A stretch of 11,709 nt of DNA. Source: a virus. Taxonomy: Duplodnaviria > Heunggongvirae > Uroviricota > Caudoviricetes. How positions within the stretch are numbered: the stretch's first letter is position 1; every line of letters begins with the position of its first letter. Below the pieces are notes generated by a model that saw nothing but the letters and a program-made list of their open reading frames with translations, was not told the DNA's origin and did not search any database. The stretch covers positions 1 to 11,709 of the IMG/VR virus record IMGVR_UViG_2548876944_000019. One strand, given 5' to 3'. This document shows positions 1 through 11,709 of the stretch, one piece after another. A program made the translations under genes and the position numbers.

Positions 1-267
1 ATGCGCAGAAAAGAATCAAACGTTAGCAGTTTGCCGGAACTCACCAATTTTGAGGTAAGCTATTCCCTAGTTACCAATGAAGTTTACTTGTCTGCATCCT
101 TCACTGATAACATGGCCTGTATACCAAACTGGCCCTTACAAGAATTTCCGGATCAACTAATATGCATTTCTCGAGCAAAAGCTATTGCCCTAATCGAAGA
201 GCTCCAGAAGACCATCGACTATATGGACGCAGGAATCGATCGACAATCAGGTAGCCTGCTCCAGTAG
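1..267 (+). CDS. Hypothetical protein (88 aa) in AT-rich cargo island
   Basis: ORF opens with ATG at window position 1 and stops at 265-267. Composition is AT-rich, unlike the tail genes. No motif recognised. The true start is uncertain because the ORF touches the window edge. Confidence 0.35.
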   Translation: MRRKESNVSSLPELTNFEVSYSLVTNEVYLSASFTDNMACIPNWPLQEFPDQLICISRAKAIALIEELQKTIDYMDAGIDRQSGSLLQ

Positions 268-400
268 CTGGCGAGTTTTATACTCGTTCCCTGCAACAAT
301 GGGCTTTTGGTAAGGCACTCACAAATAAGGAATTCGTTAAGGTTTTTGTTCTGGAGACTCTGAAAGATACAAGGAATCTGTTGATGGCTGGTTTGATCAT

Positions 401-441
401 ACTAATTAATATATTGTCAGACTCACAATATATTAATTAGT
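401..441. promoter_or_regulatory. Perfect 16-bp inverted repeat with 9-bp spacer, candidate operator
   Basis: ACTAATTAATATATTG (401-416), spacer TCAGACTCA (417-425), CAATATATTAATTAGT (426-441); the arms are exact reverse complements. It lies in the AT-rich intergenic region about 130 bp upstream of the 281-aa ORF. It is too AT-rich to be a stable terminator stem. Confidence 0.5.
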
Positions 442-568
442 GGTAGAACATAAAACCGAGTTCTTGACTTTCAATAGCTATTATATGCGATCAACAACCT
501 TAACCACCTCCTTATATTTTATGAGACACTCAAACAATTTAAATTTATGAGCAAAGGAAAATAATAAA

Positions 569-1414
569 GTGAATAAAAATCCCTGGGATATTCCAGCATG
601 GCACGCTCTGGGCCGAGAAGCATCTTTAGTTACACAGCTCATTGGTTCTGGGGCAACAGCCATAGGTAAAGCCAATTATGCAGACAAAATAGGTGAATAT
701 TACACAGCATTTTTTGGGCTTTCTGTAGGTTTTGAGAGACTTGCTAAACTAATACTTGTTGCGCACTATGCCATTGAACACAAAGGGAAAATGCCTGACG
801 AGAATATTGTAAGAAAATTTGGACATAAGCTCATTGAATTAACCAACGAGGTTGATAGCATTTCTAAAAAAATGCAACTATCTCTGAGATATTCACGTCC
901 TACACATAAAATTACCTACAAAATACTTGAATGTTTAGATTCCTTTGCTGATGCCCGACGGGGACGTTACGCAAATTTCTCCTCATTAAGCAGCCCCAAT
1001 TTAACCAATAATGAACCTATTAATAAATGGTGGGGAGAAGTAGCCGAGAGTATCCTTGAAAAACATTATTATTATACAGTTGAACAAAGACGTGTTGAAG
1101 AAAATGCTAGGTTTATCAATGCCACTCTTTCACCGTATACAACGGTCATGTATATGAATGAAAGTACCAACATTATGCAAGACCTTATATCAGCCTCCAT
1201 CCGTACTGGACAAAATACCATTGTTCAAAAGTGGGGAAGATTCTATTCTCTTAGCATCGCTCGTTGGCTTGCCACAGTATTAACAGAACTGTCTGATATA
1301 GCTTCTCATAAATATGGAATAATTAGTTTTTATGGCCTTAGTGAACATTGTTGCAGTTATATAGTTGAAGATAGTTTTTTAAAAAACAGAAAAATATGGC
1401 CACTTCGCCAATAG
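569..1414 (+). CDS. Hypothetical protein (281 aa), candidate accessory or defence cargo gene
   Basis: GTG start at 569 preceded by AAGGA at 554-558; stop TAG at 1412-1414. AT-rich relative to the tail genes. No hydrophobic membrane segments noticed. No family recognised by eye; the only weak hint is one R-x5-H pattern (RYSRPTH). Confidence 0.6.
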   Translation: MNKNPWDIPAWHALGREASLVTQLIGSGATAIGKANYADKIGEYYTAFFGLSVGFERLAKLILVAHYAIEHKGKMPDENIVRKFGHKLIELTNEVDSISKKMQLSLRYSRPTHKITYKILECLDSFADARRGRYANFSSLSSPNLTNNEPINKWWGEVAESILEKHYYYTVEQRRVEENARFINATLSPYTTVMYMNESTNIMQDLISASIRTGQNTIVQKWGRFYSLSIARWLATVLTELSDIASHKYGIISFYGLSEHCCSYIVEDSFLKNRKIWPLRQ

Positions 1415-1418
1415 TTAA

Positions 1419-1733
1419 CTAGAAAATCTGCATAAGGGGGAGAAATCCCCCACCTGTAATAACATCACTACTAAAATTAACACCTCGTTCGCGCAACTCC
1501 TCTACCAGCACGACAAGATGCCGCATACTGCGCCCCAGTCGGTCCAGTTTCCAGACCACCAGCGTGTCACCTGCCGATAATGTCCTGAGCAGCTTTTTCA
1601 GTCCTGGTCTGTCGGACTTTGTACCGCTTATCTTGTCTTCAAAAATCAGCTCACATCCTGCACAGTTCAGCGCATTACGTTGTAGATCTGTGTTCTGGTC
1701 ATTTGTTGACACACGTACATAGCCAATAAGCAT
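1419..1733 (-). pseudogene. pin: Truncated serine DNA invertase (Din family, Pin/Gin/Hin/Cin-like); catalytic N-terminal domain only
   Basis: N-terminus MLIGYVRVSTNDQNTDLQRNAL...VVWKLDRLGRS...LRERGVNF matches the resolvase/invertase catalytic domain as I recall it, with the catalytic Ser in the RVST motif. After residue 87 (nt about 1473) the sequence becomes unrelated (SSDVITGGGFLPLMQIF) and stops at 104 aa. Full-length Din invertases are about 180-190 aa and end in an HTH DNA-binding domain. Confidence 0.85.
1436..1451. terminator. GC stem-loop (GGGGGA-GAAA-TCCCCC), possible terminator at the junction of convergent genes
   Basis: 6-bp perfect stem with a GAAA loop, 22 nt after the stop of the 281-aa ORF and inside the non-native 3' tail of the truncated invertase ORF. 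The plus strand lacks a U-tract after it; the minus strand has a partial T-rich run (TTATGCAGATTTTCT). Confidence 0.3.
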
Positions 1734-1787
1734 GAGAAATAACCCTGTAAAAATCCGGGATCATGCCATCTGAGCCGAATAACTGCA

Positions 1788-1813
1788 TTTTCTAAAAGGT
1801 TGGTTTGGGAGAA
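1788..1813. other. Left inversion crossover site (gix/pix/hix-like, 26 bp), core TT at 1800-1801
   Basis: TTTTCTAAAAGG TT GGTTTGGGAGAA. The reverse complement (TTCTCCCAAACC AA CCTTTTAGAAAA) resembles the Din-family site pattern TTCxxxxAAACC-AA-GGTTTxxGAxAA recalled from hix/gix. It lies 55 bp upstream of the invertase start, as in Mu and e14. Confidence 0.6.
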
Positions 1814-2293
1814 GGCTCTGCATTACCTGTTGGTGTCCCTGTTCCGTGGCCTTCAGCCACCCCGCCGACAGGCTGGCTGAAATGCAACGGTGCGGCTTTT
1901 TCTGCTGAAGAATACCCGGAACTGGCAAAGGCTTACCCGACAAATAAATTGCCTGATTTACGCGGTGAGTTTATTCGTGGCTGGGATGACGGACGTGGAG
2001 TGGATAACGGAAGGGGATTATTAACGCTTCAGGACGGTGCGATTGTCAGTCATAACCACTATTGGGGAATCTGGACTTCACGAACTAACGACCAGACTCT
2101 GGGAAGTTTTTCAGGCACCACGATTTTAAAACAAATCACGCCCCTGTCTCCGGCCATTGACTTCGATAATTACCAAATTCCCAACCCGGCTATTACAGAG
2201 GGTGGTGTTGTTGCGGCAACGACTAAACCTGCAGGTGCGAATGAAACACGCCCACGAAATGTCGCTTTTAACTATATTGTGAGGGCTGCATAA
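1796..2293 (+). CDS. Alternative tail-fibre C-terminal (receptor-binding) segment, Sv'-like, without its own start codon
   Basis: The frame opens immediately after the TAA at 1793-1795. It has no ATG; the ORF track start at 1805 is TTG with a weak SD. It carries a tail-collar-like motif (GWLKCNGAAFSAEEYPELAKAYP). The stop TAA at 2291-2293 overlaps the ATG of the downstream Tfa gene. Confidence 0.7.
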   Translation, partial: KVGLGEGSALPVGVPVPWPSATPPTGWLKCNGAAFSAEEYPELAKAYPTNKLPDLRGEFIRGWDDGRGVDNGRGLLTLQDGAIVSHNHYWGIWTSRTNDQTLGSFSGTTILKQITPLSPAIDFDNYQIPNPAITEGGVVAATTKPAGANETRPRNVAFNYIVRAA

Positions 2294-2895
2294 TGAATAA
2301 CGCAGAATTAAACAGTGAATTAATTGCCACTATGGCAGGAGAAATTACTGTTTATAACTTTGACGTCATGAGTCGGGAGTATATTTCAGCTTCAACTGAA
2401 TATCTTGCTGTTGGTGTCGGCATTCCGGCATATTCCTGTTTAGATGCTCCAGGCACCTACAAAGCTGGTTATGCAATCTGCCGCTCTGCAGATTTTAACT
2501 CATGGGAATATGTACCAGACCATCGCGGTGAAATCGTCTATAACACCGAAACGGGAGACGCCAAAGAAATCACAACTCCGGGTGATTACCCCGAAAAAAC
2601 AACCACTATCGCCCCGTTAACGCCATACGATAAATGGGATGGTGAGAAATGGGTGACGGATACTGAGACACAGCATAGCGCCGCAGTAGACGCGGCAGAA
2701 GCACAACGTCAGTCACTGATTGATACTGCAATGGCTTCCATTAGTCTGATTCAACTGAAATTGCAGGCCGGGCGGAAGCTGATGCAGGCAGAGACCACCC
2801 GACTTAACACTGTGCTGGATTACATTGACGCGGTGACGGCAACAGATACCAGTACCGCGCCGGATGTCATCTGGCCTGAACTGCCGGAGGAGTAG
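2293..2895 (+). CDS. Tail-fibre assembly protein (Tfa/U'-type chaperone) paired with the alternative fibre tip
   Basis: 200 aa, coupled to the upstream Sv' frame by a TAATG overlap. The C-terminus (LDYIDAVTATDTSTAPDVIWPELPEE) is the conserved Tfa C-terminal motif. It sits convergent to the other Tfa gene. Confidence 0.8.
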   Translation: MNNAELNSELIATMAGEITVYNFDVMSREYISASTEYLAVGVGIPAYSCLDAPGTYKAGYAICRSADFNSWEYVPDHRGEIVYNTETGDAKEITTPGDYPEKTTTIAPLTPYDKWDGEKWVTDTETQHSAAVDAAEAQRQSLIDTAMASISLIQLKLQAGRKLMQAETTRLNTVLDYIDAVTATDTSTAPDVIWPELPEE

Positions 2896-3313
2896 GCCAT
2901 TCAATATCTGGCGCACTGGAAGTATCGACCAGTTCCAGTGCGTCCAGATAATCCAGCCACAAATTATATTGCGCCAGTTCGTCACCTTTCAGACGACCAA
3001 TAGCGGCTTTACCGGGCCACTGCTTACTATTGATATAATAGTTAGCCTGCTCAATACGGGACCTTTTTTCGGCGTCAGCAGTTCTAACAAGTTCTTCGTG
3101 AGTCGGTTTAGGTTCATCTACCCATTCAGGGAAGCCATCATTCCCTGCTGCACGTATCTTGCCATCCGGTGCATTTTCTGCTTTCCAGGAGATAAATCCG
3201 TCCTCATCAAAATCGACTCCCTCATCAGGCCATTGCCCGCTTGCCAGGTAGCTATCCTTAAGGGAGTAAGGGAAAAATTCGTTTGTAACTGCTGAGTATC
3301 TGTATTTGGTCAT
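2867..3313 (-). CDS. Tail-fibre assembly protein (Tfa/U-type chaperone) for the currently expressed fibre
   Basis: 148 aa, immediately downstream of the fibre gene (fibre stop codon 3316-3318, ATG at 3313). The C-terminus (LWLDYLDALELVDTSSAPDIEWPTPP) is the conserved Tfa motif. Confidence 0.85.
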   Translation of the reverse strand: MTKYRYSAVTNEFFPYSLKDSYLASGQWPDEGVDFDEDGFISWKAENAPDGKIRAAGNDGFPEWVDEPKPTHEELVRTADAEKRSRIEQANYYINSKQWPGKAAIGRLKGDELAQYNLWLDYLDALELVDTSSAPDIEWPTPPAVQAR

Positions 3314-3315
3314 AT

Positions 3316-3987
3316 TTATTTCCCTATGGCTATCCAGGCAATTTCTGCTCCTGGAGTGCTCCAGTTGGCAATTCGGATTGTTGAAAGATCAGCTGACGAC
3401 ACGCCAACTGGTTTTGAAGGTGAGGGATCTGAACCCCAGAACGAAGCAAGAACAATATAGCCTGAGGTAGTAAAAGGGATTGGCAGCGTCCTTACCGCAA
3501 TCTGTCCTGCCGCCATGGTTGTCCTCCCGCTCTGAATAATTGTCCCGTCTGGAAACTTTACCCACCCACTACCACTGGTCCATGCAGACATGTCTGGTAG
3601 TTGGTTAGCACCTGTTCCGACATCTCGTTTCGCCGCTTCGCCCAAACCAAGATTTGAGAGGGCCGTTTTCACCGTGCCATCCGATTTGATATCACCAAAC
3701 GGATTCTTGCGGCTCAGGTATTCAACAGCAAACCCCGATCCCAGCAATTCAACAAAACCGGGCAGATCACCATTATCAAGCACATCCCGTTGCGTTTTGT
3801 CACTTACAAACTGGGCCAGAGCTGCAGCAATAAAGCTGGCCTGCCGAATAACCTTATTGACTTGCGCACTGGATGCTTTCCCTGCTGTAAATCCGGATAA
3901 AAGCGCAGGCAACGCTTCCCATTCCTCCTGCGACATAACATTGGCATTTTTACCCGTTGCGAATGCTTTAAAGTCATTTTTTGCCAT
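3316..3987 (-). CDS. Tail-fibre protein (constant N-terminal part fused to the currently oriented variable C-terminal part)
   Basis: The ATG at 3987-3985 overlaps the TGA of the upstream gene (ATGA), so it is preferred over the in-frame ATG at 4005 given in the ORF track. The right crossover site lies in frame inside it (ALSNLGLGE). It is followed by a Tfa gene. Confidence 0.8.
3637..3662. other. Right inversion crossover site (inverted relative to the left site), core AA at 3649-3650
   Basis: TTCGCCCAAACC AA GATTTGAGAGGG. Its reverse complement matches the left site at 13 of 14 positions across core plus inner half (TTGGTTTGGG[C/A]GAA). It lies inside the tail-fibre gene at the constant/variable junction. 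Confidence 0.6.
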
Positions 3988-4667
3988 CAGAGTAATACTC
4001 CCCATGCCCCTACATCAAAACCACTGATGAATTCGTTATCCATATCAAAACCAAAAAATTTTGAACCTTCCGATGGGGTTTCCACCGAAGGTGTTTCAAT
4101 GCCACCCGCCCACACCCCGGCGGCTTTTACTGTGAGATATCCCTGTTTAATTGCAGCAATTAACTCACGCGATACATCTGAAATATCAGTATCAGGAAAG
4201 ACCCAGACCGATATCGTCATGTCCTGGTTATCGACAATCTGCATTCGCAGCCCGGATCCTGCTGTTGCCGCGTCAAGAATTGCCGGAAGCGAATCATTCC
4301 GTCCGTCCCAGTTATTAATCGCAATCTTCGCTTTAAGAATGACACGATAAGTTTCATCGCTGAGATACATGTATCCAGAATCAGGATCATATGGCCCCTG
4401 CCATACCCCCTGATCATATCCAAGCCCGTCGGTATCCCAGCTGAAATAGACACCTGAGATAGGCTGGCTGACAACACGGCTACGTCCGATCCACAATCCC
4501 AGAATGTCAAGTTGCACACCAACCGCAGAGTCAATATCAAATGCAGTAATCAGCCCTCTGGTGGCAGCCGCAACATCAATAAGTGGCCGGGTCATCAGAT
4601 CAACATGCGCAAGAAATTTAGGTTTGGTGGCGTGGTAGTTCGTGATTAGTTCGGTGTATTTGCTCAT
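3987..4667 (-). CDS. Baseplate/tail protein, gpI-like (Mu gp48 / P2 gpI position)
   Basis: 226 aa; sits between the gpJ-like gene and the tail fibre; ATGA overlaps at both ends. Assigned by position and size, not by a recognised motif. Confidence 0.6.
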
Positions 4668-5863
4668 GACTCCACCGTTATAACGATATTTTCCGGGGTA
4701 CAGGACGCAGATTCGTTGTATCTGATATCAATGTTTGATGACGACAAAGCCCCCGGGGATTTCCCAATCGTCAGTTCCTGAATATCGTAATAGCGTGCAT
4801 TACCGCCACTCACCACGCCAAGATTCGCCGGTGAGTAAATGCGACTTAAAAGGACCGAATTACCAATCATCAGACTATTGATATAGTCGGAAATAGCCTG
4901 CTGGATCTGTTGCCCTATCTGTGAGGTATAACCCGTAAAAACTTTTAATTTAATCCGGGCATAAACAGGTACATCACTGGAACGCGAGAATTTGATTACA
5001 TGGGGATTGCCGTATTTATCCGGAACCGTAACGGATGTTGTACCGTGAGTGGCTGTCCCCTGGCCTTTATTCCCTCTGATAGCCTGAGCAATATCCGTCA
5101 CATCACCGCCATCCACAATTACAGCAACAGAGTGTGGCGGTAACCCGTTACCGTCCTCCGAACCAGTATCGTTTTCATAGAGTTTGTGGCGGGTTACACC
5201 GGTAACATTAGAAACGGCACCATCCAGTGCTTCAAATGGGGTTATTGATGGCAACGCAACACTTTGCGACTGGCGGATACGTAACTCCGCATCAGTTTCT
5301 GCTGGAGTGCCTACAGTAGCTGCAGCAGGATTGGTTACCGAAACCCAGCCACGGGTTGGCGTATTAATTTCAGTGATAGTTCCAGCCAGCGCCGCCACTG
5401 CACCACTGACGGAACATTTTGCGGTCGCCATCACTGTACCATCCACGCCGACCACCACTGAAGCAGGCAAACGCCATATCACATTATTACTGTCTTTCAC
5501 GCTGCCATTAATGATGGTTGTTCCGGCAGTTCCTGTAAGAAGCAAATCAACCGTAGAGTTCGTCGCGCCTTTACGTGAAATACCATTTATTTTCACGTTG
5601 CTGGTCAGTGCAGCCCCATAGCCGGTTGCCGGTGAAAAACAGTTGTAGACAGTTATCGCCATATTATTGGCATCATGAATCGCCAGCGCCATCAGAGCCA
5701 CCATCTGGCCGTCTTTGCTGTCCGGTTCGAGGTAGGCATCACTGCCATAAACCTGCTGAAAATAGCTAATCAGGGTGCTGAGTATCGTCTGATAATCAGG
5801 CGCACTGATCCCCTCCGCGGTTACCTTTGCAGATAAACCGAGAGAATCAAGGTTCAGAGCCAT
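4664..5863 (-). CDS. Baseplate protein, gpJ-like (Mu gp47 position)
   Basis: 399 aa; follows the gpW-like gene with a TAATG overlap and precedes the gpI-like gene with an ATGA overlap. Assigned by synteny. Confidence 0.6.
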   Translation of the reverse strand: MALNLDSLGLSAKVTAEGISAPDYQTILSTLISYFQQVYGSDAYLEPDSKDGQMVALMALAIHDANNMAITVYNCFSPATGYGAALTSNVKINGISRKGATNSTVDLLLTGTAGTTIINGSVKDSNNVIWRLPASVVVGVDGTVMATAKCSVSGAVAALAGTITEINTPTRGWVSVTNPAAATVGTPAETDAELRIRQSQSVALPSITPFEALDGAVSNVTGVTRHKLYENDTGSEDGNGLPPHSVAVIVDGGDVTDIAQAIRGNKGQGTATHGTTSVTVPDKYGNPHVIKFSRSSDVPVYARIKLKVFTGYTSQIGQQIQQAISDYINSLMIGNSVLLSRIYSPANLGVVSGGNARYYDIQELTIGKSPGALSSSNIDIRYNESASCTPENIVITVES

Positions 5864-6216
5864 TACGCCTCCGATGTAACAGTCGTTATTCCATAGAGAG
5901 TGTCGATTTCAGCGGAAAACATGACACGTCGGGTCGTGGTATCCACCGTCGTATTGAAAGAGAGGATTGATTTAACGCCCCGCGTTTCCAGAATGCGTTT
6001 TCTGATCGCCAGGTTGTAAGTTTCCGGTTTTTGCCTGCCCAGCACGGACTGGATCCACGGAGTCCCCTCGGTGGTGTCGAGAAACCATTGCCCATACCAT
6101 AATTCGAATCGCGTTTTTACCGCCTGCGCCACGGCCTCCGGTGAGTTAATCAGCCAGGTGTCATCACCGCTGCCAAAGGTATAATCGCCATCGGCGTCTT
6201 CACGTCTGTATCGCAT
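5863..6216 (-). CDS. Baseplate wedge protein, gpW/gp25-like
   Basis: 117 aa, a size typical of gpW/gp25. Its C-terminal region resembles P2 gpW as I recall it. It sits between the spike and the gpJ-like gene with overlapping start/stop codons. Confidence 0.55.
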   Translation of the reverse strand: MRYRREDADGDYTFGSGDDTWLINSPEAVAQAVKTRFELWYGQWFLDTTEGTPWIQSVLGRQKPETYNLAIRKRILETRGVKSILSFNTTVDTTTRRVMFSAEIDTLYGITTVTSEA

Positions 6217-6971
6217 CAGTTAGGCGCTCCTGTGTTACCGCCGCCGGTCTGTACTCCGCCGTGCGTGTGCGTCATCAGGCTCTTACCACCAGCTTTTACA
6301 TCGTTAGTCACCGTGACAGGGCCAAGCATCGTCGCGGTGCCGCCGCTTTCGCCCATCCCCTGAGAGAGATTCCCGTTTATTGTCACGTTGCCGTTTAGCG
6401 TGATGGTGGGTGATGTGATCGTGGTTCCTCCTTCTGCTGTCGCCGTCAACGCGCCGGGAGTTTTAACCGTGATATTATGGCCTGCGGCCACTTCCACAAA
6501 CGCAGCGCCATCATCAGTACGCAGCTGCGCGCCACTGGTGCTTATTCCGCTTATTTTCTGCGCCTGAGACTGCGGCCCGACGATACAGAAAGCATCCGAT
6601 AAATCATGCACCCGGTCGTCGACAGGCTCCTGCACCCCGCCGTTCTGCCACCAGAAATCGATGCAGCGGTCGGCGAAAATCACCAGGCATTCATCCCCGG
6701 CTTTAACCGGAAAAGTCAACGTACAGCCTCCACCGCGCGGAAATACCACTGGCACATCCACCAGCAACGGGTAATTTTTGGTAATGCGGTTACCGTCGTT
6801 ATCCTTTTCAACCGAACGGATAGCTGGCTGCACAACCGCCGTCACCGCGTCGGGATCGAATGACTGAACAATGCCAGGCAAGGCGACACGGATCTGGTTC
6901 TTTGTTGTTTCCCGTTCAGATTTGAATGTTTCGGCAAGGTCGCCGCTGCGGGTCTGGTCAGATACTGCCAT
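6216..6971 (-). CDS. Baseplate central spike protein, gpV-like
   Basis: 251 aa with a C-terminal beta-helix-like repeat run (ITVKTPGALTATAEGGTTITSPTITLNGNVTINGNL) and a THTHGG (HxH) apex motif near the C-terminus, as in gpV-type spikes. Confidence 0.75.
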   Translation of the reverse strand: MAVSDQTRSGDLAETFKSERETTKNQIRVALPGIVQSFDPDAVTAVVQPAIRSVEKDNDGNRITKNYPLLVDVPVVFPRGGGCTLTFPVKAGDECLVIFADRCIDFWWQNGGVQEPVDDRVHDLSDAFCIVGPQSQAQKISGISTSGAQLRTDDGAAFVEVAAGHNITVKTPGALTATAEGGTTITSPTITLNGNVTINGNLSQGMGESGGTATMLGPVTVTNDVKAGGKSLMTHTHGGVQTGGGNTGAPN

Positions 6972-6990
6972 TTAGTAGGCTCCAGAAAGC

Positions 6991-7016
6991 AAAAAACCCG
7001 CCGGGTGGCGGGTTTT
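6991..7016 (-). terminator. Rho-independent terminator downstream of the lipoprotein gene, inside the tail operon
   Basis: Perfect 10-bp stem AAAACCCGCC / GGCGGGTTTT (6993-7002 and 7007-7016) with a 4-nt loop. On the minus strand the hairpin is followed by a T-rich run (TTTTTTGCTTTCT). It lies between the lipoprotein stop (7037) and the spike start (6971). Confidence 0.7.
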
Positions 7017-7036
7017 ATGTGACTAATTTGATCTTT

Positions 7037-7762
7037 TCAGTTTATAAGCCCCATCTTACCGGCGCTTCGATAGTTAATTACATCGCCTGAAGAGCCGCAA
7101 GGCACAGCTACAGTCGACATTTTGACAAATCCTTTACCGCCCTGCTTTTGGCATAAAGTGGCATGCATTTTTGCTAAACGCGCAGCATGGCCAAAATCAA
7201 TTTTGGTTCCGTAAGTTGAATCTCGTAGAGCTGCTTTTTTTGCAATTCCGGTAATATTTTTGTCTTTAATTACAGATGCAAACAAACTCAAATCATTTCC
7301 AATTTGATTGAAGCAAGTACGATTAATATCAACATCGGCATACGCTGAAATGCGTTTGCAATCTGAGATCTGAGAAAGCACAGATGTGTTAACTAGTTGC
7401 AAATTTAATTTGTAGTCACCGACATAGGTATAAACTTTGTTAGGGTCCGTGGTTCCCGGATAACGAGTTACGAATGGAATGCTGTTGTACGCATCTCGCA
7501 AAGATTCTGCCCCCTTACTTGTAAGCTCGTTCCCAACACCAGCAACGATAACCTCTGGATGTGAAACTTCAAATTGAGACTTTTCTTCGCGCTGTATTTG
7601 AAGCCTGCTTTTCTGGCTCTCCTCAACTTGCTTATCGTACGCTTGTTTTTCTTCATTTTTTTGGGATAGCCATTTTTCCTGCGCTTTAGCACCATTAGGA
7701 TCCCAACTACATGAAGTTAAAAAAAGAGAAAATACGATTGTGGTTATCGCAAGCCTGCTCAC
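7037..7762 (-). CDS. Predicted outer-membrane lipoprotein (241 aa), moron inserted in the baseplate operon
   Basis: GTG start at 7762 with GAGG 9 nt upstream. Signal peptide ends in lipobox LTSC with Ser at +2. A charged linker (KAQEKWLSQKNEEKQAYDKQVEESQK...) is followed by a four-Cys globular region. The gene is visibly AT-richer than the flanking tail genes and is followed by its own terminator. Confidence 0.75.
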   Translation of the reverse strand: MSRLAITTIVFSLFLTSCSWDPNGAKAQEKWLSQKNEEKQAYDKQVEESQKSRLQIQREEKSQFEVSHPEVIVAGVGNELTSKGAESLRDAYNSIPFVTRYPGTTDPNKVYTYVGDYKLNLQLVNTSVLSQISDCKRISAYADVDINRTCFNQIGNDLSLFASVIKDKNITGIAKKAALRDSTYGTKIDFGHAARLAKMHATLCQKQGGKGFVKMSTVAVPCGSSGDVINYRSAGKMGLIN

Positions 7763-7764
7763 TA

Positions 7765-8829
7765 TTATGCACCTCGATTCATCGCTGACTGGCTAGGAAT
7801 ATCACTAGCACCTCGAGCAAAGCACATCATGTCCATGTACCACGCCTGGCCCCTTGTGTCACCAGTGTACATAATCCCGCGCACAATATAAACGCCATCC
7901 GTTGCGATGCTGGCAGGTTGTGCTGTGGTGCCGCTGAGCGTGATATTACCGTCCGTGTTCTGGTCGGTGATCTGCCCACCAGCCATCGCGATATCATTGT
8001 TCGACAGCGCGGTGCGGTACACGGAAGCCTGATCCAGCTGAATAAGCCCGTTAACCCGGATGTTCGGATTAATCAGCGCACGGACGTTTACACCGTTGCC
8101 GATAGTCTGCTGCGGCATGCCAATAAGCCCGGTGGCGCTGTTGAGCACAATCGCGTCGTGAACATACTCGTTATTCGCCACCATCTGGCGCTGACCGTCC
8201 ACAAATTGCCATGTTGCGCCACATTGTCCGGCCACGTTATCCATAAGATGCCGTGTCATGCCGAACAGCACCCGCCCTCGAGGGAATACGGTAGCAGGCA
8301 TTTCAGGCGTCAGTCCTTCGGTCGCGCCTTTGGCCTCAAAGTCTTTCATCAGCGCACGGTTCACATCTGCGACCGTGTAACCGGCCGCCAGCGTCTGCGA
8401 GGTTATACTGGTGGCAAATGCCAGATCCGTATCTGCTGCCTGAATCAGGACATAGGAATCAATAGGGCTGTCTTTTCCTGTGACCGAGTAGCGAATTTCT
8501 CCGCTGAAAATCAGCCCGTAGTTGCGGCCATCACTCTGGCCCACATCTGCCGCGTCGACTTCACGCACGGTCCCGACGTCGCTTGCCGCCACCTCCGGCG
8601 CGATACCGTCGTAACCGGCAATCAGCCGCACTTTCGAAAACTCCTGCCCGGTAATTCGGTTCACAGTATCTGCCGAGAGGTTATAAATTTTGATAGTCCC
8701 TACCCGGGACGCGCTGCTGATGTTGAACCAGTCGATCGTAAAGGTGACTTTGAAATCACTTAGCTCAATTCCCTGACCGTTCCCGTCCACAAGCTGCAGC
8801 TCGAAATGTCTCATCCAGTTCTGTGACAT
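7765..8829 (-). CDS. Baseplate hub / tail protein (Mu gp44 / P2 gpD-like by position and size)
   Basis: 354 aa; ATG at 8829. Located between the small tail assembly ORFs and the spike, where hub proteins sit in Mu-type tails. No motif verified. Confidence 0.55.
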   Translation of the reverse strand: MSQNWMRHFELQLVDGNGQGIELSDFKVTFTIDWFNISSASRVGTIKIYNLSADTVNRITGQEFSKVRLIAGYDGIAPEVAASDVGTVREVDAADVGQSDGRNYGLIFSGEIRYSVTGKDSPIDSYVLIQAADTDLAFATSITSQTLAAGYTVADVNRALMKDFEAKGATEGLTPEMPATVFPRGRVLFGMTRHLMDNVAGQCGATWQFVDGQRQMVANNEYVHDAIVLNSATGLIGMPQQTIGNGVNVRALINPNIRVNGLIQLDQASVYRTALSNNDIAMAGGQITDQNTDGNITLSGTTAQPASIATDGVYIVRGIMYTGDTRGQAWYMDMMCFARGASDIPSQSAMNRGA

Positions 8830-8831
8830 GC

Positions 8832-9134
8832 TTACTCCGTTGATACCAGTAAATGACTGCGACCGCCCAGATCAGTTTTCGTGGGATAATCCTGTGTGTT
8901 GTCATCGCAGACCACCACCAGCTTAAAACCAAGCCCCATACAGGCGTACTGCGCCAGCAGATCAGCGCCAGTGACGAGAGGAATACCGGAGATTACCGGC
9001 TCTCCTCTGTCGTTCTGCAGGTCCATAATCCAGTAAGGATCGCGCCATATGATGCTAATCCGCCAGGTGACACCACCCAGGACGATGCTGAACTGCTGGT
9101 TGTCCGCTGTCAGCGGAATTTCCTGAATTGTCAT
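8832..9134 (-). CDS. Small tail/baseplate assembly protein (100 aa), function unassigned
   Basis: ATG at 9134 overlaps the TAA of the upstream ORF; it ends 2 nt before the hub ATG. Typical coupled small tail gene. Confidence 0.5.
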   Translation of the reverse strand: MTIQEIPLTADNQQFSIVLGGVTWRISIIWRDPYWIMDLQNDRGEPVISGIPLVTGADLLAQYACMGLGFKLVVVCDDNTQDYPTKTDLGGRSHLLVSTE

Positions 9135-9721
9135 TAGCCGCCTCCCAGTAATGACGCCACGTTACCCGTGATGCTTTTCAGCAGTGAAGTATCTGGAGGC
9201 TTTGTGGTTTTGTTACCGCTATTCTGTACCGCCGACGTGCTGGCCCCTTCCTTCATGTTGGTTTTATCCGCGACGGTAATCTTCTGTGTCCGGGAGATAA
9301 TGACCTCCCTCAGGGTGAGGACGGCGGACAGGACGTTTTCGGTTGTCTTGTCCGTCGTTACTTCCAGCGCCCGGATCAACATGTTGCTGTACAGCCGTTT
9401 ACCGGTTACCACATCGAAGGGGATACAGCTTTCCTGCAGATCCAGTAGCTCCTGATACGTCTGCTGAGGACTCAGGCCGAGCAGGCTGGTAGCCGTCAGA
9501 TTACTGGCAAAATCCAGCAATGCGCCGCCACCGGCGAAACCAACCTCCATCACCACTTCTGACGGTTTTTTATAGGCATGATCAGCGACAGCGGCCCCGA
9601 CCTCTACCGGATGCTCTGTTATTTCAAGCATATCTGTATGCTTCTCTGAAATAACAACACTGGGAACAATCATTCCTATTTTTCTGCTCTGCTGATGAAA
9701 AAGTGTAGAGAGAATATCCAC
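9134..9721 (-). CDS. Tail assembly protein (195 aa), function unassigned
   Basis: GTG start at 9721 overlapping the tape-measure stop (TAGTG), with an SD-like GGTGAGGG just upstream. An internal ATG 16 codons downstream is an alternative start. Confidence 0.5.
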   Translation of the reverse strand: MDILSTLFHQQSRKIGMIVPSVVISEKHTDMLEITEHPVEVGAAVADHAYKKPSEVVMEVGFAGGGALLDFASNLTATSLLGLSPQQTYQELLDLQESCIPFDVVTGKRLYSNMLIRALEVTTDKTTENVLSAVLTLREVIISRTQKITVADKTNMKEGASTSAVQNSGNKTTKPPDTSLLKSITGNVASLLGGG

Positions 9722-11709
9722 TAACCCACCCTCACCTGATTACTTCGCATGACCTGAGCATTTGCAGACTGTTGCCGACGTGCAACCTCATTACCGACAG
9801 CGTGCGGATCTCCGCCACCGTAAATGTGGTAAGTATTTTGCTGGTTAACCTCTGTCATTTTGCCACTAATTCCCGCCACGGCAGCCTTATTAATCAGCTC
9901 TCGAGAATAGATATTTCTTCCATTCTCATGCTGGATAATGCTGCTCATCAATGCTGACATGGTTTGCGGATCGCTCATATTCAGGGCAGCCCGGGGATCC
10001 ACTCCCAGTCGTTGCGATACAGCCCTGATATACGCAGTTGTGTTGTTATTATCAGACGCAGGTGCCCAGGTAGAGATAATTTTCTCCACACTGTTTATTC
10101 CCCGTCCGGCGTACAGCATTAACTGACGAGCAAGAGCCCGTAATCCATCAAAAGCAGTTTCAAATCTGGCAAATCGCCCGCCCGGGCGTTCAAGAGAAGC
10201 CCCTGCCTGACCAGCAAAATTAAGGTTTCCCGGATTGTTATTCCGTTCTCCTCGTTTCGTAGCCTGTGCATATTGTTCCGGCTCATCATCACCAAACCAG
10301 CCGCGTACCGTCCGGCCCACACTGCGGGGATCGAATCCCCAGTGCTCTTTAATCCAGTCGGCAGTACTGTTAGCGCTGTCTGTAACCATCGGCATCGCTG
10401 ACGGATTTTCGCTGCCCTGATTAAGTATCTGTTTGCCGATGCTGACGGCATCAGCCCAGCGGCCATCTTTGATAGCGTTGAGCAGGTCGGCGATCATGTT
10501 CAGCATTTTGCTGAATTCGCCCATCTGGTCGATGAAGTTGCTGAAATCCCACTTCAGGGACCATGATTTGGGGTCAATATTGAGCAGTTTCGCCAGCGCT
10601 TTCACCAGGTCGTTAACGGTCGTTTTAAGGTCACGAACCATCTTCAGCGCGGCATCGACCTCCGGTTTCCACTTGCCCCAGTCAATCAGGCTGTCGCCGC
10701 CTTCCTTCCAGGTCTGATAGTCCTCCCACAGGAGGGCAATACCCGCCGCCAGCGCGGTAATGAGGCCAATCGGCGACATCCAGAACGTACTGTTCAGAAT
10801 GCGCAGCGCAATCGTCAGTGCGCCAAACAGCGAGATCAACTCCCGCGTTTGCTTATCCAGCGATTGCCACCAGGTGATAAGGCCTGATGTCCCCTCAATC
10901 AGTCTGAAGAACAGCCGCCCGATAATATCCCCGAGCGCCAGAATGCCTTTTATGGCTTTCGTCAGGGTCTGCTCGATACGAGGGAAGTTGTCCAGGATAT
11001 GGCGGCGCAGGGTGTCCAGCGAACCCGCAAGCCCCCCCGCAAGATTAGAGCCGATTTTGTCACGGGCCATGCCTGCCATCGAGCCAAACTCACGCAGGGA
11101 GGTCATAAATTTGTTGGAGCTTCTGGCCGCCTCGTCAGCATTGAAGCCGATAGCTTTCGCCATTGCGCTGTACTGCCCGGAGAAGCCACCCACACCCCGG
11201 CGCATCGCCATAAGGGTATTTTCGTCAATGCCCAGCATCTGCGCATACTGGTTAGCCCGGTAATACGGCATGCTGCTGAGTTTCTGTCCAACGCCCGTAA
11301 AAATAGCGGCCATGTCACGCATGTTACCGCTGGCATCACGGGTCTGTACGCCCAGGCGATTCAGAAAGCCTTCTGCACCGGGATTGTTACGAATAAACCG
11401 GGATAGGCTTTCCAGAGAAGATCGCGCAGCGTCCACGCTGCCGCCAACCTGCGAAACCGCATAGCCAATAGACTGAATTCCCTGGACTGTCGCGCCGGTG
11501 CGCTGTGACGCCCAGTAAAGATTATCCAGGCCGGAGGCGATCTTAGCCGTGAAGGCCACCACGGACAACGCAGCTCCTTCAACAGCCAGCCCCATTTTGA
11601 TGACATTTGCAGTTGTACCGGCGAGGACAGAACCGAACTTTTTCGCTCCTGCATCATCCACACTGAAGCCAAGCGAGACGAGGAAATCTTTAATAGTTTC
11701 AGCGTTCAT
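9721..11709 (-). CDS. Tail tape measure protein (662 aa as given)
   Basis: Long, alpha-helical, Ala/Gly-rich protein with a central hydrophobic stretch (ISLFGALTIALRILNSTFWMSPIGLITALAAGIALLW), immediately upstream of the baseplate genes. The ATG sits at the window edge (11709-11707), so completeness cannot be proven. Confidence 0.8.
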   Translation of the reverse strand: MNAETIKDFLVSLGFSVDDAGAKKFGSVLAGTTANVIKMGLAVEGAALSVVAFTAKIASGLDNLYWASQRTGATVQGIQSIGYAVSQVGGSVDAARSSLESLSRFIRNNPGAEGFLNRLGVQTRDASGNMRDMAAIFTGVGQKLSSMPYYRANQYAQMLGIDENTLMAMRRGVGGFSGQYSAMAKAIGFNADEAARSSNKFMTSLREFGSMAGMARDKIGSNLAGGLAGSLDTLRRHILDNFPRIEQTLTKAIKGILALGDIIGRLFFRLIEGTSGLITWWQSLDKQTRELISLFGALTIALRILNSTFWMSPIGLITALAAGIALLWEDYQTWKEGGDSLIDWGKWKPEVDAALKMVRDLKTTVNDLVKALAKLLNIDPKSWSLKWDFSNFIDQMGEFSKMLNMIADLLNAIKDGRWADAVSIGKQILNQGSENPSAMPMVTDSANSTADWIKEHWGFDPRSVGRTVRGWFGDDEPEQYAQATKRGERNNNPGNLNFAGQAGASLERPGGRFARFETAFDGLRALARQLMLYAGRGINSVEKIISTWAPASDNNNTTAYIRAVSQRLGVDPRAALNMSDPQTMSALMSSIIQHENGRNIYSRELINKAAVAGISGKMTEVNQQNTYHIYGGGDPHAVGNEVARRQQSANAQVMRSNQVRVG

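Follow-up and report, generated by a model that had tools for sequence, protein, structure and literature searches.

A truncated PinE-type invertase beside a prophage tail fibre switch that appears to have kept turning after the truncation

The 11,709-nt stretch of DNA analysed here (hereafter the window; positions 1 to 11,709 of the IMG/VR virus record IMGVR_UViG_2548876944_000019) carries on its minus strand, at 1419–1733, an open reading frame (ORF) of 104 aa that is the pseudogene stump of a truncated Din-family, PinE-like invertase. The stump lies in an E. coli prophage, beside an invertible tail fibre segment of 1,851 bp (1800–3650), and the locus is an ordinary, classical Din-type fibre switch with a decayed invertase and no active cis-encoded enzyme. 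An earlier note made from the letters of this DNA (the original prediction) recognised the truncation and proposed that the switch was probably locked. The sequence and its comparison with related prophages directly reveal that the gene was truncated, that its C-terminus is absent, that this goes back to a single event and that the fibre segment has been inverted exactly, after the truncation, in three lineages. We put at roughly 0.77 the probability of the overall reading developed below, namely that the locus combines a dead PinE-type remnant with surviving cis-acting parts and that the segment is still inverted by an invertase from elsewhere.

The N-terminal part of the ORF is that of a Din-type enzyme. 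The Pfam Resolvase N-terminal domain (PF00239) matches residues 3–88 with an E value of 2.3e-30, residues 1–89 align to residues 1–89 of the Mu Gin invertase (PDB 4m6f/3uj3, 193 aa), the closest solved structure, with an E value of 2e-44, and residues 1–87 are ~98% identical to PinE of E. coli K-12. The catalytic motif YVRVSTNDQ, including the serine, is present. Homology stops at residue 87–89: the alignments to Gin and PinE, which the original prediction had proposed as a check, reach only residues 89 and 87, respectively, and the DNA match to K-12 pinE (310/353 in blastn) runs from window position 1819 down to 1467 and ends there. On the basis of this match and of the junction alignment, the pinE-homologous part of the ORF (codons 1–89) occupies 1467–1733 on the minus strand, and the 3′ tail with the stop codon (1419–1466, minus strand) comes from foreign cargo DNA. 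The last 15–17 residues, SSDVITGGGFLPLMQIF, are unrelated to PinE and are read through a GC hairpin at 1436–1451, located 3′ of a 281-aa gene. The foreign DNA beyond the junction has a GC content of 33–40%, compared with ~50% in the tail genes. A search for an intrinsic-terminator pattern at the junction was negative: the GC hairpin is present but lacks a T run.

Helix E is the known dimer interface in serine recombinases, where it serves oligomerisation and rotation. This helix and the C-terminal helix-turn-helix (HTH) domain were looked for and are absent, and the ORF therefore fails as a functional Din-family enzyme: tblastn of full-length PinE against the six frames of the window detected no remnant of residues 90–184, which comprise both elements, and the other matches had E values of ~1 or worse. 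Since no PinE C-terminal coding sequence is found in any frame of the window, neither a frameshift nor a local misassembly can explain the truncation or restore the gene. The original prediction was right about the Din-type N-terminus with its catalytic serine, about the unrelated end and about the missing helix E and HTH. Its description of the gene as truncated to its catalytic domain holds for the truncation but not for the domain, which is itself clipped; the strand after residue 87 and the whole of helix E are gone, and the Pfam match covers only profile positions 2–97 of 145. The equivalent feature has already been annotated by NCBI PGAP as ‘recombinase family protein, incomplete, missing C-terminus’, that is, as a recombinase pseudogene.

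The truncation is real, old and a single event, not an assembly error. The cargo region is present in 44 of 5,426 complete E. coli genomes, and at least 42 of these have the fusion of cargo and stump in one continuous alignment. Two contigs, of Logan SRR35311711 and ENA ERZ21877986 (loci L004 and L005), match all 11,709 nt of the window at 100%, the sequencing runs SRR29334175, ERR302860 and ERR1790759 likewise contain it exactly, and the same junction recurs across dozens of independent NCBI, ENA and Logan contigs. Every truncated locus is a prophage end adjoining yfhH, in the host gene order purL-mltF-tadA-yfhB-yfhH. When six truncated copies were aligned with two intact pinE genes, the junction and its specific variants (GGTGTTAATTTTAGTAGT/GATGTT) proved common to all truncated copies, as did variants in the last 18 nt of the homologous part (1467–1484). 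Because the junction and the variants close to it are shared by all the aligned truncated copies, the truncation arose once. The window's own stump allele is ~10% diverged from the truncated copies in complete genomes. ON470579 and its relatives were considered as packaged virions and rejected as such; these records are predicted prophage regions that include host genes.

The other parts of the switch are in place, and here the claims that both crossover sites and the alternative fibre tip look intact are borne out. Crossover site L (TTCTCCCAAACCAACCTTTTAGAAAA on the minus strand, 1788–1813) has its central dinucleotide at 1800–1801 and agrees with the pix site of e14 at 22/26 positions. Crossover site R (TTCGCCCAAACCAAGATTTGAGAGGG, 3637–3662, plus strand), with its central AA at 3649–3650, lies within the fibre gene and encodes the ...GLGE junction. 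The two sites form an inverted 26-bp pair with a conserved core and central AA, as in Din-type segments. Between them, a silent alternative fibre tip with a Tail Collar domain (1805–2293, plus strand; Pfam Collar, E 8e-16) is in frame with the crossover site and is followed by its tail fibre assembly chaperone (2293–2895, plus strand; Pfam Caudo_TAP, E 5e-30). On the opposite strand are the chaperone of the expressed tip (2867–3313; Pfam Caudo_TAP, E 5e-29) and the expressed tail fibre gene (3316–4005, although gene callers place its start at 3987), which consists of a constant part down to 3651 and a variable, gp53-like C-terminal tip at 3316–3650. Since site R is located within the fibre gene, inversion exchanges the C-terminal tip together with its cognate chaperone. 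The fibre fusions are open in both orientations, encoding 229 aa and 282 aa, and inversion of 1800–3650 in silico yields a 282-aa in-frame fibre that is 100% identical to an annotated E. coli tail fibre protein, P0001.

The contig that encodes P0001 (L011, GCA_036927655.1) carries the same prophage at yfhH, and the in silico inversion reproduces it: the flipped window and L011 align collinearly along all 11,709 nt, and the alignment has 0 mismatches and a single short gap. A second allelic lineage, here called ST38-type, was examined with a 947-nt probe taken from locus L002, in which the stump is flanked by 300 nt of the cargo gene and 300 nt of the segment. Amongst the complete E. coli genomes, the native probe matched 16 at 100% and 2 at 99.9%, and the probe flipped in silico matched three (22AR0747, 1296KP and MSB1_6C) over its full length at 100% identity. 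In 22AR0747 and 1296KP, the entire locus of 13,148 nt equals flipped L002 with 0 mismatches. In the third lineage, the O111/O26 allele of enterohaemorrhagic E. coli type, the flipped locus of the O111:H11 strain 8D (L001) shows 4 mismatches to strain 97-3250 across 13,339 nt. When the flipped junction of the window's own allele was used as a probe, no complete E. coli genome was matched at a coverage of at least 80%.

Sites L and R of the window differ at position 4 and from position 15 onwards. Given these differences and the flipped product without mismatches, the exchange is confined to a 10-bp core, CCCAAACCAA, with the central AA, and this is a signature of Din-type site-specific recombination. 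Moreover, the truncation is common to lineages whose stumps diverge by ~10%, and the flipped and unflipped pairs are near-identical, which makes the flips younger than the truncation. The comparison of alleles thus indicates that exact inversion has occurred at least three times since the truncation, in three allelic lineages, and argues against the conclusion of the original prediction that the switch is probably locked: the same truncated prophage is found in both orientations, and at the population level the switch appears not to be locked. In the short-read assemblies L009 and L010, the contig ends (window positions 1927 and 1918) fall within the Collar domain, away from the crossover site, and give no sign of mixed orientations, although this is a weak test. 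As a separate observation, two assemblies of strains with an intact pinE (JE86-ST05, NZ_AP022815.1, and JE86-ST02, NZ_AP022811.1) carry this locus at the same chromosomal position, ~330 kb, where a Collar-type tip adjoins it in one assembly and a gp53-like one in the second; their orientations are apparently opposite and, if truly so, the pair would provide a natural positive control for flipping with a cis-encoded enzyme.

A different route to the same arrangements would be for the segment to flip in a related prophage with an intact invertase and then to enter the truncated locus through homologous recombination. Prophages have indeed recombined with one another at this locus. The stump region of the window (1467–1830) is a mosaic, identical to the intact pinE of JE86-ST05 until ~20–40 nt from the junction and then carrying the variants of the truncated copies, a pattern that shows gene conversion among the invertase genes of prophages; in JE86-ST05 (L013), the intact gene sits in a Mu-like prophage at the pao locus. 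A further locus, L006 (GCA_974490255.1), has the 88-aa gene, the 281-aa gene and the exact 104-aa stump at yfhH, matching window positions 1–1840, and there the crossover site marks the transition from the stump side to a completely different tail module of Mu-like type, with sheath, tube, a DNA circulation protein and gp44–48. This suggests either that a whole prophage or tail module was swapped via the stump or the crossover site, or that a chromosomal inversion took place between the crossover sites of two prophages. As the origin of the flipped copies, however, import is quite unlikely. The donor would have to equal the recipient over the segment and both flanks (0 mismatches in 11.7 and 13.1 kb), no donor combining an intact invertase with this tail module was found in the 5,426 complete genomes or in 50,697 phage records, and the transfer would be needed three times.

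Retention of the 104-aa stump protein for a role of its own, for example interference with full-length invertases or a function as a regulator, is very unlikely. The ORF is open in five of the six truncated copies examined, but the older truncated alleles carry non-conservative changes (Y5H, R81C, R83Q and G26E) and one copy reads through the stop codon, which is the pattern expected of a pseudogene. Recent gene conversion from an intact pinE accounts for the clean sequence of the window's stump, and a fragment without helix E is a fragment without the known dimer interface (PMC3798978).

A permanently frozen switch, in which all inversions predate the truncation and the two orientations represent independent old lineages, is hardly tenable. 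It would accord with a stump that lacks every domain for site binding and synapsis, with the finding that the four inspected copies of the window allele other than L011 are all in the window's orientation, and with the uniform orientation of the ten ST38-type genomes in which no candidate invertase was detected (described below). Against it, flipped and unflipped copies match across 11.7–13.3 kb (0, 0 and 4 mismatches), with the junction and the cargo genes included, and the single truncation is common to lineages that are ~10% apart in the stump and is therefore much older than the flips. Freezing, which the original prediction had offered as the alternative to supply in trans, thus fails at the population level and may hold in hosts without an enzyme.

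It is scarcely credible that the inversions arose by RecA-dependent homologous recombination between the short inverted repeats, with no site-specific invertase involved. The products do leave the exchange point within the common core undistinguished, but the length of this core, 10 bp in the window and ~15 bp for the ST38-type allele, is far below that for efficient RecA recombination, and the exchange coincides exactly with canonical Din crossover sites. The idea that faulty sequencing or assembly conceals a full-length gene can effectively be dismissed: nothing was found in its favour, no C-terminal coding sequence is present in any frame, the junction is identical in at least 42 complete genomes and dozens of independent contigs, and the window has exact copies elsewhere.

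The retained 5′ coding region also contains a predicted recombinational enhancer (1649–1712, minus strand), within the first ~85 bp of the stump coding sequence. Two Fis-like 15-mers of the form G-N13-C, GTGTCAACAAATGAC (1712–1698) and GTGCAGGATGTGAGC (1663–1649), are predicted by homology. They lie 49 bp apart from centre to centre, which is the spacing in K-12 pinE, and the centre of the proximal one is 95.5 bp from the crossover centre; compared with K-12 pinE, the window has two differences in the proximal 15-mer (GTGTC vs GTATC) and one in the distal. In the Hin system, the wild-type enzyme requires an enhancer of 65 bp that has a Fis site at each end and lies ~100 bp from hixL (PMC3798978). 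The position and size of the predicted element agree with these features. In that system, Fis contacts the DNA-binding (HTH) domain of the invertase (PMC3798978), which is the part missing from the stump.

These observations can be combined in the following scheme. One ancient event would have replaced everything past codon 87–89 with a low-GC cargo cassette, comprising the 88-aa and 281-aa genes, at the prophage end proximal to yfhH. The resulting stump would be unable to recombine DNA, having neither helix E, for dimer and tetramer formation, nor the HTH, for site binding and contact with Fis. The parts left in cis would be the two 26-bp crossover sites, the enhancer region and both cassettes of tip and chaperone and, because all cis-acting parts survive, the 1.85-kb segment would remain a substrate. 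A small serine invertase made elsewhere would then invert it occasionally, the likely source being a co-resident or incoming prophage or plasmid with an enzyme of PinE/Gin/Cin type or PinQ/PinR type. In hosts without such an enzyme, the fibre would effectively be frozen. Cross-complementation between Din invertases has been known since the 1980s.

Candidate helper invertases were counted in the ST38-type set, which comprises three flipped and 18 unflipped genomes, using chimeric probes that join the cargo region to the C-terminal half of pinE or pinQ; the number of places matched per chromosome then shows extra C-terminal halves. All three flipped genomes have a candidate, PinE-like in 22AR0747 and MSB1_6C and PinQ-like in 1296KP. 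Amongst the unflipped genomes, ten have neither type, seven have only a PinQ-like and one has both, and the genomes with no detectable candidate are in one orientation without exception (10/10 unflipped); in hosts that lack a helper, the switch is probably frozen. PinE-like copies taken alone are found in 2/3 flipped versus 1/18 unflipped genomes (Fisher p = 0.04). With probes consisting only of the stump, a second place was matched in nearly all genomes, which is most likely the widespread pinH-type internal fragment that has no C-terminal half. As a broader observation, sequence homologous to the N-terminal half of the invertase is present at least once in 4,629 of the 5,426 complete E. coli genomes (~85%), the median being two places per genome, and 3,420 genomes matched the probe of cargo and PinE C-terminal half, a number that is an upper bound for carriers of a PinE-like C-terminal half. 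Genomic fossils of this sort, N-terminal invertase fragments like pinH, seem to be common.

Published experiments provide a precedent for supply in trans: PinQ and PinR of the Qin and Rac prophages invert the P segment of e14, which resides in another prophage (Kirigo et al., 2025, PMC12529663), and an e14 function complements Mu gin (PMC12529663). Several points nevertheless weigh against the reading that a helper from elsewhere turns this switch. When any candidate invertase is set against orientation, the association weakens to p = 0.12 (Fisher), and a candidate enzyme is present in eight unflipped genomes. The association rests on 21 related, phylogenetically non-independent genomes, and the count covers chromosomal invertases with at least ~70% nucleotide identity to the probes. 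Furthermore, deletion of pinE in K-12 locks the P segment despite the chromosomal pinQ and pinR (PMC12529663). This lock could reflect weak trans activity at native levels or, as we infer, removal of the enhancer along with the gene; the enhancer region suspected to be lost in the K-12 deletion is kept in the stump. Supply of the enzyme in trans appears to be the best explanation of the flips, and the dependence on a trans-acting invertase put forward in the original prediction fits both the helper counts and the published cross-complementation (PMC12529663).

A pseudogenised invertase beside an invertible fibre segment does not imply a fixed host range. For host-range prediction and for catalogues of invertible DNA, the orientation of such a segment is to be treated as changeable wherever a compatible invertase is present in the cell, and the regulatory unit becomes the whole prophage complement. 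Inversion in silico at the crossover sites, followed by an exact-match search, offers a cheap comparative test for other orphan switches. Decayed Din invertases in E. coli (pinH), the flagging of this stump as a pseudogene in RefSeq and cross-complementation, including that by PinQ and PinR, were known already. The new contribution is the comparative evidence of an orphaned switch that still turns, which amounts to confirmation in a natural setting and not to a new principle. We also raise, as a tentative and rather unlikely joint reading, that the stump is kept for its enhancer and crossover site, that the switch is an orphan host-range switch set solely by the invertases of other phages, resident or incoming, and that the stump serves as a homology anchor for the exchange of fibre and tail modules. 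If the orphan-switch part is true, induction of, or infection by, one phage rewrites the tail fibre of another; module exchange via the stump anchor, if true, would be exemplified by the window's recombinant allele and by the Mu-like module of L006.

The place of the 3′ half of the invertase gene is occupied by the foreign 281-aa cargo gene (569–1414, plus strand), which has a putative HEPN-like fold and is a candidate defence gene; no match was obtained for it in Pfam, PADLOC, PHROGs or NCBIfam. It was considered as a possible HEPN-domain defence or abortive-infection protein, a class marked by a four-helix fold and a conserved R-x(4-6)-H motif. An 88-aa cargo ORF (1–267, plus strand; PHROG 17793, function unknown) is located at the prophage end adjoining yfhH. 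The slot downstream of the fibre invertase at the prophage end holds a defence-like gene that changes from one relative to the next: mcrA in e14 (L003), a gene for a GIY-YIG protein in JE86-ST05 (L013) and the HEPN-like 281-aa gene in the window. It looks like a cargo hotspot, turnover of which probably clipped the invertase. By analogy with StfE2 of e14, a further and rather unlikely possibility is that the fibre chimeras act with the neighbouring HEPN-like gene as a small defence islet there. Between the 88-aa and 281-aa genes, a near-perfect AT-rich palindrome at 401–441 (20-nt arms, 95% complementary, with a 1-nt spacer) overlaps promoter-like hexamers on both strands and may be an operator for the cargo genes. 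The cargo region is disrupted in some strains, by IS421 in CAU16175 and by IS3 in 357900, and the 281-aa gene is broken into parts of 207 and 52 aa in L008, a metagenome contig. Within the tail module, a 241-aa ORF with a lipoprotein-type signal peptide (…LFLTSC) lies between baseplate/hub genes at 7037–7762 on the minus strand; its only family match is a weak PHROG hit. Relatives carry DUF4282 and a hypothetical gene (O111 and O26 strains) or DUF2335 (L012) at this position, which is a second variable cargo slot.

Of the known systems, the closest is the P segment of e14 in K-12 with its invertase PinE, to which the stump is ~98% identical over PinE residues 1–87 and with which the crossover site shares 22/26 positions. 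The order of elements is also the same, with the invertase followed by the silent tip and its chaperone and then by the opposed chaperone and expressed fibre, and in both cases the prophage end, downstream of the invertase, carries a cargo or defence gene (mcrA in e14, the 281-aa gene here). Unlike e14, however, the invertase here has lost residues 88–184, the tail module contains DUF2612/Wedge1, baseplate J and a gp138-like spike and no Mu gp45–48, and the prophage is located at yfhH and looks complete. The G segment of Mu with Gin and the C segment of P1 with Cin are likewise host-range switches that swap the fibre C-terminus and chaperone by inversion between 26-bp sites, aided by a Fis-dependent enhancer located within the 5′ part of the invertase gene; the homologous region, with its predicted enhancer, is kept here, in contrast to the functional cis-encoded enzyme. 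In the action of PinQ and PinR on e14 (PMC12529663), the invertase of one prophage flips the fibre segment of another, which is the mechanism proposed here, but the K-12 segment also has its own PinE, whereas supply in trans would be the sole route for the locus in the window. The pinH pseudogene of K-12 (b2648; L031, 15066–15305) is similarly a decayed Din invertase fragment and is 83% identical to the stump over 141 nt, but it is an internal fragment (PinE residues 38–94) without the enhancer-bearing 5′ end and with no invertible segment annotated next to it. Finally, Kutsukake and colleagues reportedly found in 2006 that Fin of the Fels-2 prophage substitutes for Hin in Salmonella flagellar phase variation; there too, a prophage Din invertase is said to serve an invertible segment elsewhere, although that segment is a promoter switch and not a fibre switch.
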